In this document: positions 31,201 to 34,200 of the stretch, one piece after another
Layout: every line of letters begins with the position of its first letter
Position numbering within the stretch: position 1 is the stretch's first letter
NCBI RefSeq assembly: GCF_058153355.1
Contig: NZ_CM177019.1
Length of the DNA stretch: 64,000 nucleotides
Strand: one strand, 5' to 3'
Program-made: the position numbers

Positions 31201-34200
31201 CTATAAATTTTGAGCCACCCATCGCGCTCCTCGGTCATCTCGATGGCACCATCAACACCAAGAATTGCCTCACCAACCACGCGCACTAACCCTTTTTTTA
31301 ATTTGCCAACAAATAAAAGAGTATCTTCATCATTCGCTTCATTTAACGAAGTGCCGTGCTGAAGCCACACAACATCAACGTTTAGAAATTTCGCAAGCGC
31401 ATTCATTTTTTCCTGACGTGGTAAAGACTCAGCATTAAACCATTTGCTAACGCCTTTGGACGAAAGAGAAAGGGCGCGGGCTATGGCCATTCCCCTACCA
31501 TGTTCATCAAGACCAGCTTCTTTACAGGCTTGCGCTAGCCGCTGGGCGAATTCTTTGCGCACTTTTTCATTCTGAACCATGAGTACGATACTAAAGCACT
31601 TGCAAAAACTTTCAGTTCAATCATAATGCGTACTGAAAGTACGAAAAAGGATGTCCACATGCAAAATCTTGATGAGCCGATTAAAGGTGTCGGCATCCCT
31701 GAAGTTGCGAAGGCTTGTGGAGTTAGCGAAAGGGCTGTCTATAAGTGGCTCAAAAATGGCTTCCTCCCTAAGACTGAGTTTTTTGGGAAAACGAAATACG
31801 CATCAAAAATCGAAGAGATTTCTGGTGGCAAATATCAAGCAAGCGAAATGCTTGAAATAAGCAAAAAGAACCTTCTGGCTGCATAAGTAACACCGCTCTT
31901 TGTAACAATGGACATTCGTCCTACGTCGCTGAAAAGCGAATCCCAGAATATCTGACCAACTAAGGCCATATGCGTTTCCACGCATACCTTTCAACTAACT
32001 ATTCACTATTGGAAATCTTAAGAAATGGAACAAACAAGTTACAGCAAACTATCACAGCGCGATGTTGATCGCGCAGAAACAGATTTACTCATCAACCTGT
32101 CAACGCTTACCCAGCGCGGTCTGGCAAAGATGATTGGCTGTCATGAATCGAAGATAAGCAGAACGGACTGGAGATTTATTGCTTCGGTCTTGTGTGCTTT
32201 CGGAATGGCATCAGACATCAGTCCGATTAGCAGGGCTTTTAAGTATGCGCTTGATGGACTCACCAATAAAAAACGCCCGGTGTGCAAGACCGAGCGTTCT
32301 GATCAAATACAAATGGAATTTTAACAACATCCAACGAGGTAATTATATGCGAAAAACGCAGGAAAATAAACGCGTTAATCACCGAAAAGATGTGCTACGT
32401 GACCAGTTTTATCAGGGGGTTAATCCAGAAATAGCTGTGCCACTGAGAGAAATACTTAACAGGTACAAAACTTCGGAGAAGTCAAAATGAGCATGAGTCT
32501 TATGGCTAAGGCCATGAATATAAAGGTTGGCAACCCACTGAGAAAACTGATTCTGATTAAACTTGCCGATAACGCCAATGATAATGGCGAATGCTGGCCT
32601 TCATATCAACATGTCGCTGACCAGTGTGAGGTGAGCAGATCGACAGTAAAAAGTCACATTAGGGCACTGGAAGAGATGGGTCTTTTGAAAAGGGAATGCA
32701 GAAGAAAAGGAGAGCTTAACCAGTCAAACGTTTTTTATCTGACGCTGGATAATGCACAACAAATCCCACCAGAATCAGGTGGGGCAGGAGCTGCCCGGGG
32801 TGGGGCAGGAGCTGCCCTAGGGGGTGGGGCAGGAGCTGCCCCCAGAACCTATCACTCTTTTGAACCAGTCAATGAACCTAAAAACATTATGTTCGAACAT
32901 GTCCGAACGGAGTGTGAAAAAACTCCTGACCGTCACGAAGAAACCGACAAGGCATTCGAGGAAATATTCTGGTGTGCAGGCATGCGGAAAGCCGGGAAGA
33001 AAAACGCAGCTTCGGCATTCAGAACACAGTTCAGGGAATGGCGTAAAACTACCAGGGGTACAGCAAGCGAGTTTGCCACAATGCTGGCAGAAGACATCGC
33101 ATGCAGGAATGGTAAGCAGTTCGGATTCGACAGGTTGTTACCATCGAGCTACCTGAACGGTCAGCGCTGGAACGACGAGAAGCCTGAAACCATTCAACCG
33201 CAATCCAAACCATCATCCGCAATTACCGTATCGAAAACTGGCTACGTGTTTTTCGACAGGTGAACCATGAAATCAAAAATCAAATCGCTACTGGTCGCTG
33301 GTTATAACCACGGCTGGTTAAGTATTTCGTTTGTCGATTTCTGGTTTAAAAATCTCGACCTCAGCAGCCATTAGCTCCGTCAATGGCGTTTAAACGCCAT
33401 CAGACGCGCTGTAGCACGATAAACGACGGTCTGACAGGGAAACCGCAAGATAAAAAAATATTGCGTCAGAATGCGATTCAGGACGGTTAAAGTATGAGTC
33501 CATCAGAACTTAGCGACCTGCTTTGGGCGCAGGTTGACAGGGTGGCTCCGCACCTGTTGCCAAACGGCAAGAAAGAGGGGCATGAGTGGGTTGCCGGTAA
33601 CGTCAACGGTGACAAGGGAAACAGCCTTAAGGTCAACCTTAGCGGCAAGAAAAAATGGGCTGATTTCGCTGAGGGAGACGGCGGTGACATGCTTGATTTG
33701 TGGATGGCATGTCGTGGAATTAACCTGCATCAGGCTATGCAGGAAGCGAAAGCATTTCTCGGTATCAAGGATGACGATCACCATTTCGATGCCAGACGTG
33801 AGAAGAAATTCTCCAGACCTGAACGCAAGAAAATCGCCCGCTACGTTACCAGAACAGAATCCCATCTTGAGTACCTGCAATCGCGTGGCATATCGCCAGA
33901 AGTCGTAAAGCGCTACGAGGTTGTCAGCGGCAAGGTGTGGAATGGAGAACGAGAACTGGATGCTCTGGTGCTTCCGTACAAACGCGATGGTGAGTTGTTG
34001 CAGGTCAAGCGAATCAGCACTGAGCGCCCGGACGGGAAGAAAGTCATTATGGCAGAAGGTGATTGCGAACCTTGCCTGTTCGGATGGCAGGCTCTGGACG
34101 CTGGCGTGAGGGCGGTTGTGCTTTGCGAAGGCGAAATTGATTGTATGAGCTATGCGCAATACGGCATCTCGGCGTTATCCGTGCCGTTTGGTGGCGGGAA

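Follow-up and report, generated by a model that had tools for sequence, protein, structure and literature searches.

The DNA analysed here, called the window throughout, is a stretch of 64,000 nucleotides (nt) from contig NZ_CM177019.1 (assembly GCF_058153355.1). It includes a lambdoid prophage whose replication-initiator gene contains, just past the part that encodes the DNA-binding domain, an array of three direct repeats followed by a short element that is constant across the gene family. The features concerned are these, with lengths in amino acids (aa) or base pairs (bp):

32487..33263, plus strand: replication-initiator gene, 258 aa, HTH_36 class, the 'Eru5' helix-turn-helix (HTH) protein of Stx phages.
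32487..32762, plus strand: N-terminal winged-helix domain, aa 1-92, with recognition helix SRSTVKSHIRALEE and wing LNQSNVFYL.
32776..32796, plus strand: putative iteron 1, core GGTGGGGCAGGAGCTGCCC at 32778-32796, dyad GGGCAG-GAG-CTGCCC.
32797..32817, plus strand: putative iteron 2, core at 32799-32817, 21 bp past iteron 1.
32821..32841, plus strand: putative iteron 3, core at 32823-32841, 24 bp past iteron 2.
32842..32878, plus strand: constant 37-bp element CCAGAACCTATCACTCTTTTGAACCAGTCAATGAACC, a candidate invariant part of the origin.

The first-pass annotation had described three 19-bp direct repeats at 32778, 32799 and 32823, each with an internal dyad, in the middle of the gene and encoding a Gly/Ala linker, and in all these respects it was borne out. 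There are three exact plus-strand copies of GGTGGGGCAGGAGCTGCCC (32778-32796, 32799-32817 and 32823-32841), and the dyad GGGCAG-GAG-CTGCCC can be read directly from the sequence inside every unit. The repeats lie in frame within the open reading frame (ORF) at 32487-33263 and encode GGAGAARGGAGAALGGGAGAAP, residues 98-119, in a stretch predicted to be disordered between the winged helix and the C-terminal domain. They are unique within the window: no fourth copy was found in the 64 kb at up to three mismatches, and 100 dinucleotide-preserving shuffles gave 0 matches, so that none is expected by chance. The unit can be extended to 21 nt, GGGGTGGGGCAGGAGCTGCCC, with start-to-start distances of 21 and 24 bp. 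In repeat size, dyad symmetry, spacing of about two helical turns and place within the gene, the array has the architecture of in-gene iterons. Iteron 3 occupies what the family profile shows to be the best-conserved, 'last' iteron position, with GGGGGT before it. A promoter and terminator scan gave nothing convincing within the repeats or the constant element, the only nearby site being a weak minus-strand hairpin at the small palindrome described below.

Phage genomes were searched with the N-terminal 97 aa of the initiator (tblastn), which gave 409 records, and a peptide-pattern scan of viral contigs added 80 further loci; combined, these represent 46 distinct N-domains. All 46 have 2-7 direct repeats, each dyad-symmetric, right after the winged helix, and in 40 of them no other 66-nt stretch of the gene is as periodic as the one at the repeat position, with lags of 21 and 24 dominant. 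Eight diverged homologues with an array come from Klebsiella, Stenotrophomonas, Vibrio, Shigella, Aggregatibacter, Escherichia and Aeromonas phages. Each lineage has its own repeat sequence, which varies in step with the recognition helix and wing (about 90 distinct N-domains), as follows:

Recognition helix RSTVK: half-site GGGGCA.
Recognition helix KRSVMN: half-site AGTGCA..TTCAC.
Recognition helix KSAVR: half-site TATGCC.
Recognition helix RTAVRN: half-site TGTGC.
Recognition helix RSTVR[KR]: half-site TGTAG.
Recognition helix KRTAM: half-site AGTGAC..GTCAC.
Recognition helix SERALQ: half-site GCAGA.TCTGC.

Mosaic joints with SI5 and ES18-like phages lie directly to the right of the repeats and constant element, so that N-domain and repeats are transferred together as a single specificity module. 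A C/A variant of the repeat (..CTGCCC versus ..CTGACC) was considered as a specificity change and rejected, because both forms are mixed in single arrays with the same recognition helix. One locus (L093, IMGVR_UViG_3300030798_000084) has a hybrid last iteron, with AGTGCA of the KRSVMN class on the left and TGCCCC of the RSTVK class on the right, which suggests recombination within that iteron.

These comparisons bear on one alternative, that the repeats are a slippage-prone tandem repeat coding for a flexible Gly/Ala linker and have no function as DNA. It would account for the predicted disorder of the region, for the identity of the three copies in the window, for the 1-7 copies found in near-identical genes, always in frame through units of 21 or 24 bp, and for the existence of single-copy variants. 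A pure linker, however, needs neither dyad symmetry nor repeats whose sequence follows the recognition helix, and the peptide they encode is unconserved (GGAGAA, MPADST, PSDKMS, VVTQSH and MPPKSIA in different lineages) whereas the dyad, the 21/24-bp period and the position are kept. The copies within diverged arrays are, moreover, non-identical, so that the arrays are maintained, with selection keeping several sites, and have not arisen by recent slippage alone. We therefore regard the linker explanation as unlikely.

Each window unit can also fold into a GC stem of 6 bp closed by a loop of 3 nt, and shuffled sequence folds somewhat less well than the region (z = -2.4), as might be expected if the GC-rich dyads acted as RNA hairpins in the early-right transcript, by way of translation pausing, message stability or attenuation. 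Against this, the repeats of other lineages give much weaker hairpins (e.g., TATGCCAGCAGATAGCA), an Rfam scan of 31000-36000 at E up to 1 returned only a chance snoRNA match, and hairpins would explain neither why the repeats follow the recognition helix nor why the sites are two turns apart. A role as RNA is accordingly very improbable.

A close parallel with an annotated origin is phage ES18 (genes 59-61, AY736146). ES18 resembles the window in the C-terminal half of the initiator (93% identity), in the small ORF that follows and in the 626-aa primase-helicase (94%), and differs from it in an N-domain of lambda type, in iterons of that type, TCCCTCAAAATGAGGGA, with an A-rich stretch after them, and in the lack of GAACCAGTCA, the motif of the constant element. 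The ES18 record annotates a rep_origin, with four lambda-type iterons, inside the initiator gene at the equivalent position. Given the dyad architecture at the same place in all diverged homologues, the co-variation with the recognition helix and the ES18 parallel, we read the three repeats as probable iterons of the lambdoid prophage's replication origin, lying within the initiator's own coding sequence, with a probability of about 0.8. The proposal of an iteron-type phage origin within the initiator gene, made at first pass from this sequence, is thus supported by comparison, through the co-variation, the freely varying peptide and the ES18 rep_origin.

Copy number was counted at 53 loci with the window-type repeat. 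One locus has no copy, 8 have one, 15 have two, 13 have three, 10 have four, 2 have five, 3 have six and 1 has seven; spacings are solely 21 or 24 bp, so that all variants stay in frame. The isolated phages checked have at least two copies (SI5 two, phi24B three, phiKp_30 six). The single-copy loci are all prophage or assembly-derived sequences, and the variability may come from decay of silent prophages or from collapse of repeats during assembly. At the zero-copy locus (L029, IMGVR_UViG_2537561977_000031, ~3540-3600) the N-terminal part of the initiator has been replaced just upstream of a lone iteron, whose spacer is inverted (GGGCAGCTCCTGCCC instead of GGGCAGGAGCTGCCC). The range of 1-7 copies suggests fast-evolving control either on replication efficiency or on prophage decay.

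Several observations weigh against an origin at the repeats. The three copies in the window are identical, as recent slippage would give. Near-identical genes with 1-7 copies, 8 of 53 with only one, are hard to fit to a complex of several dimers, and this is the chief reservation about a lambda-like multi-dimer model. The co-variation amounts to some 6-8 independent helix/iteron classes among related sequences, not 46 separate events. The flank of the repeats is not markedly AT-rich, and no strongly AT-rich unwinding region was found there. The window prophage contains IS4-family and IS66-family transposase copies and may be defective. Finally, no experiment on an origin of this type was found in the searchable literature.

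The DNA to the right of the repeats shows constraint of a different kind. In this study we defined a feature consisting of a dyad-repeat array with the constant element CCAGAACCAGTCACTCTTTTGAACCAGTCA after it, and the window has both parts in that order. The family consensus of the element is CCAGAACCAGTCACTCTTTTGAACCAGTCAAnGAACC, in which the motif GAACCAGTCA occurs 2-4 times; the window copy differs from it at two bases, having TAT instead of AGT. Across 44 distinct genes, ten consecutive codons of the element are each represented by a single codon in 95-100% of cases, including codons for the six-fold degenerate residues Arg (AGA) and Ser (AGT, TCT). For contrast, invariant residues of the N-domain are encoded by 2-6 synonymous codons, the commonest at a frequency of 0.3-0.9. 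Nucleotide identity is at least 90% over nearly the whole element and drops to ~40-50% just after GAACC. At least 120 exact matches to a 26-nt core were found in viral contigs, nearly all of them within the initiator family: among the matches listed, 112 have the family N-domain in frame upstream, and the other eight are family motif variants, a single copy that seems to be frameshifted, or matches that fall at the ends of contigs. The peptide encoded by the element, PRTYHSFEPVNEP, falls in the predicted disordered stretch. Invariance at synonymous sites, the sharp boundary, the exclusive context and the disordered peptide together point to selection on the DNA itself.

The element is present whether the downstream gene encodes a DnaB-type helicase, a P-like loader, a primase-helicase or no obvious partner, and it is missing from ES18; this independence of the partner, together with its absence from ES18, indicates that it belongs with the N-domain family and not with the helicase. 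Its core is identical at synonymous sites across Vibrio, Stenotrophomonas, Aggregatibacter and enterobacterial phages, whatever helicase or loader follows. We infer that the element would be the constant part of the origin, and it might serve as a melting or helicase-entry site. Alternatively it may be a shared recombination linker, since mosaic joints flank it. DnaA-box, IHF and 13-mer sites, looked for in the element by eye against consensus sequences, gave no fit.

A tentative proposal, to which we give somewhat less than even odds, is that origins of this family are bipartite in a manner undescribed for lambda, with a variable iteron array for specificity joined to a universal 37-bp core, CCAGAACCAGTCACTCTTTTGAACCAGTCAAnGAACC, under DNA-level selection. 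The core could then be read as single-stranded DNA by the invariant part of the N-domain. If so, it would stand in for a compositional AT-rich unwinding element.

The AT-richer segment reported after the repeats at first pass exists but is weak. The fraction of G plus C (GC) is 0.43 at 32842-32878 and 0.375 at 32879-32918, below the prophage mean of 0.50, and about 10.5% of the prophage's 40-nt windows have values this low; both figures are far above that of the lambda AT-rich stretch (0.225). The DNA just past the constant element has two further features:

32879..32908, plus strand: A-tract, TAAAAACATTAT, together with the near-palindrome GTTCGAACATGTCCGAAC (32891-32908), where the C-terminal module begins.

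The ES18 form of the near-palindrome, GTCCGAAAGTGTTCGGAC, still pairs, through a compensatory change of T-A to C-G, and the phiKp_30 form is a perfect palindrome. Whether the A-tract and near-palindrome, which are only moderately AT-rich, form part of the origin is uncertain.

The lack of a strong AT-rich element beside the repeats would fit a further alternative, in which the repeats are true initiator sites whose main role is in autoregulation, in copy control or as a roadblock to transcription, and replication starts elsewhere. Plasmid iterons also act in negative control (PMC6118388), and a stretch with a palindrome directly precedes the helicase gene. Candidate starts would be this stretch of about 115 bp, with its palindrome at 33383-33400, or a site inside the primase-helicase gene (compare N15 repA and P4 alpha). 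On the other side, the ES18 record places the origin within the initiator gene, the invariant 37-bp element adjoins the repeats as expected of an origin core, the window has no further copy of the repeat, and the 115-bp stretch is missing from phi24B, ES18 and SI5 although these have the same helicase. We judge a mainly regulatory role as unlikely as a pure linker.

The stretch itself consists of ~115 extra bp at 33375-33490, between the small ORF homologous to ES18 gp60 and the start of the primase-helicase gene; within it is a perfect palindrome of 18 bp, ATGGCGTTTAAACGCCAT (33383-33400). Klebsiella phage phiKp_30 also has the stretch; in phi24B, ES18 and SI5 the small ORF abuts the helicase gene, and as a general origin the stretch was ruled out by its absence from these three.

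The genes and protein parts to the right of the origin candidate are as follows:

32879..33260, plus strand: C-terminal module of the initiator, aa 131-258, with tail PSSAITVSKTGYVFFDR; 93% identity to the C-terminal half of ES18 gp59.
33267..33374, plus strand: small conserved ORF, 35 aa, homologue of ES18 gp60 (PHROG 21848, E 1e-24).
33494..35374, plus strand: primase-helicase, 626 aa, with T7 gp4-like architecture, presumed to be the replicative helicase loaded at the origin.

The initiator had been called O-like, and the term holds for its position and architecture only, since no homology to lambda O is detectable. Pfam matched HTH_36 at aa 17-67 (E 1.4e-13) and otherwise generic HTH families only, with no match to Phage_rep_O (PF04492), and the best BLASTP hit to lambda O was not significant (E = 0.33). 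PHROG 4617, 270, 8540 and 391, 'replication initiation (O-like)', match aa 1-138 with E-values from 1e-76 to 4e-34 (1e-76 for PHROG 4617, 2.5e-45 for PHROG 8540). The core LIKLADNAND-GECWPSYQ is present, which places the protein among the HTH_36-type phage initiators (PHROG 4617/8540/391; SfV orf39 type).

An AlphaFold model made with a 47-sequence family alignment gave a confident winged helix for aa 1-92 (predicted local distance difference test, pLDDT, ~90; topology H-H-H-H-E-E), no structure for aa 93-149, which include the repeat-encoded peptide, and three low-confidence C-terminal helices within aa 150-206. A Foldseek search returned generic winged-helix proteins and singled out no specific initiator family, and a sequence search of solved structures gave no chain below E = 0.28.

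RepA_N plasmid initiators of Firmicutes also have a winged-helix N-domain and origin repeats in the middle of the initiator gene. Weak Foldseek matches to 4pql, 4pt7 and 5kbj (E 4e-3 to 8e-3) recall this family; membership was rejected, because there is no sequence similarity and the E-values are like those of generic winged-helix regulators.

The C-terminal module is a candidate contact with the primase-helicase, to judge from the sequences compared. Its last 17 residues, PSSAITVSKTGYVFFDR (33210-33260), are common to the window, ES18 and SI5; the middle part of the SI5 C-terminal region is otherwise unrelated to that of the window, and all three precede the same primase-helicase. The latter was correctly described beforehand as a primase-helicase fusion at 33494-35374. 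It has Toprim_2 (aa 209-296) and AAA_25/DnaB_C (aa 355-594) domains in one protein, as in T7 gp4, matches PHROG 239 'DNA primase/helicase' (E 1.6e-171), and is 94% identical to ES18 gp61 and 93% to the Salmonella phage SI5 protein. The pairing of initiator and primase-helicase is not unusual, being annotated also in ES18, SI5 and phi24B.

The 968-aa 'P' protein of phi24B (L001:5075-7978) corresponds to the 626-aa window protein, with 96-98% identity, plus an insert of ~340 aa. The insert lies exactly within Walker A (GVNGHGK / ...THN / TEVVGH) and is intein-like; the window copy has none. This comparison also took in E. coli FDAARGOS_943 (H91) and phiKp_30 (L005).

Initiation at these iterons might proceed as follows. 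Dimers of the N-terminal winged helix would bind the dyad-symmetric 19-bp sites, as the co-variation suggests, and the spacing of about two turns would set the sites on one face of the DNA. The nucleoprotein complex would then, by analogy with the lambda O-some, destabilise the DNA to the right, with the 37-bp element, the A-tract and the small palindrome. The C-terminal module and its tail would recruit the T7 gp4-like primase-helicase, encoded 230 bp downstream, as suggested by their co-inheritance, and this enzyme would need neither a lambda P-type loader nor a separate host primase. The same origin DNA would also encode the disordered Gly/Ala linker; because linker length is free, slippage could shift iteron number by units of 21 or 24 bp.

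The resemblance to lambda ori (four 18-bp iterons and an AT-rich region in gene O) that was noticed at first pass extends to in-gene iterons, dyad symmetry and spacing; it does not extend to protein homology or to the AT-rich element. In both systems the direct repeats are dyad-symmetric, are spaced by about two helical turns (20, 24 and 23 bp in lambda; 21 and 24 bp in the window) and lie within the initiator's coding sequence, separating the part for DNA binding from the part for partner binding, and in both the N-domain and its iterons are swapped between phages as a specificity module. Unlike lambda, the window has an HTH_36 protein with no detectable O homology (E = 0.33), GC-rich iterons, and a far more variable copy number in its type (1-7). 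Where lambda has a 38-bp AT-rich stretch (GC ~0.23), the window family has the invariant 37-bp element (GC 0.43), and where lambda uses P and host DnaB, the window has a self-contained primase-helicase.

Distinct iterons inside their own initiator genes are known in lambda, P22 and phage L (PMC8022706). The gene 18 repeats of P22 and phage L, each different, are part of this accepted lambdoid pattern (PMC8022706); those phages differ from the window in protein family, in repeat sequence and in their partner, a DnaB-type helicase (gp12).

Very close to the window module are the Stx2 phages phi24B, Min27 and Stx2a_F403, to which the region 32300-33356 is ~96% identical. Their initiator gene, annotated O, has ~96% nucleotide identity to that of the window and is accompanied by the same primase-helicase, and phi24B has the same three repeats. 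The differences are the ~340-aa intein-like insert in the Stx-phage helicase gene and the additional 115 bp before the helicase gene in the window. Stx2a_F403 represents the replication type 'Eru5', defined by an HTH_36 protein with a primase, in a paper that makes no mention of iterons (PMC8951638). Iterons in this initiator type were not described in the searchable literature, although older papers may mention them.

Other features of the prophage and its surroundings were observed in passing. The prophage integrase is at 16300-17373. IS4-family transposase genes occur at 14651-15997 and 25279-26625, one of them inside the prophage, and IS66-family transposase genes at 27399-28970 and 56896-58467, both inside it. 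On the minus strand at 32270-32300, within the 3' end of a cII-like gene, is a strong terminator-like hairpin (12 pairs and a T-run) that matches the terminator of the lambda oop antisense RNA in position and orientation. In the nin region (36631-37339, minus strand), two small genes for proteins of 136 aa and 102 aa overlap in a toxin-antitoxin-like arrangement; the 102-aa protein, which has an HTH, is the only one of the pair with a family match, a weak one to an RstR-like repressor. Between an IS66 copy and the cI-like repressor (29147-30425, minus strand) is another overlapping pair, with ORFs of 258 and 170 aa, and neither gave an NCBIfam match.

The module is common. Of 5426 complete E. 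coli genomes, 571 gave matches to 32300-35400, and in 100 of these a single match covers at least 80% of the query. The kind of origin is well known, being a lambda-like arrangement, and the protein family differs from lambda O; the specificity rule and the invariant 37-bp element exceed what the searchable literature describes. The module, with matches in roughly one in ten complete E. coli genomes, drives the Stx2 phages of the phi24B/Min27 (Eru5) type, whose replication sets toxin gene dosage after induction, and the searchable papers class it by protein type only, without locating the origin. An origin at 32776-32878, if the iteron reading is correct, would provide a concrete segment for work on replication and incompatibility, together with a candidate constant core. 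As a rule, the iteron class would be predictable from the recognition-helix class, which would make origins predictable across hundreds of related phages.

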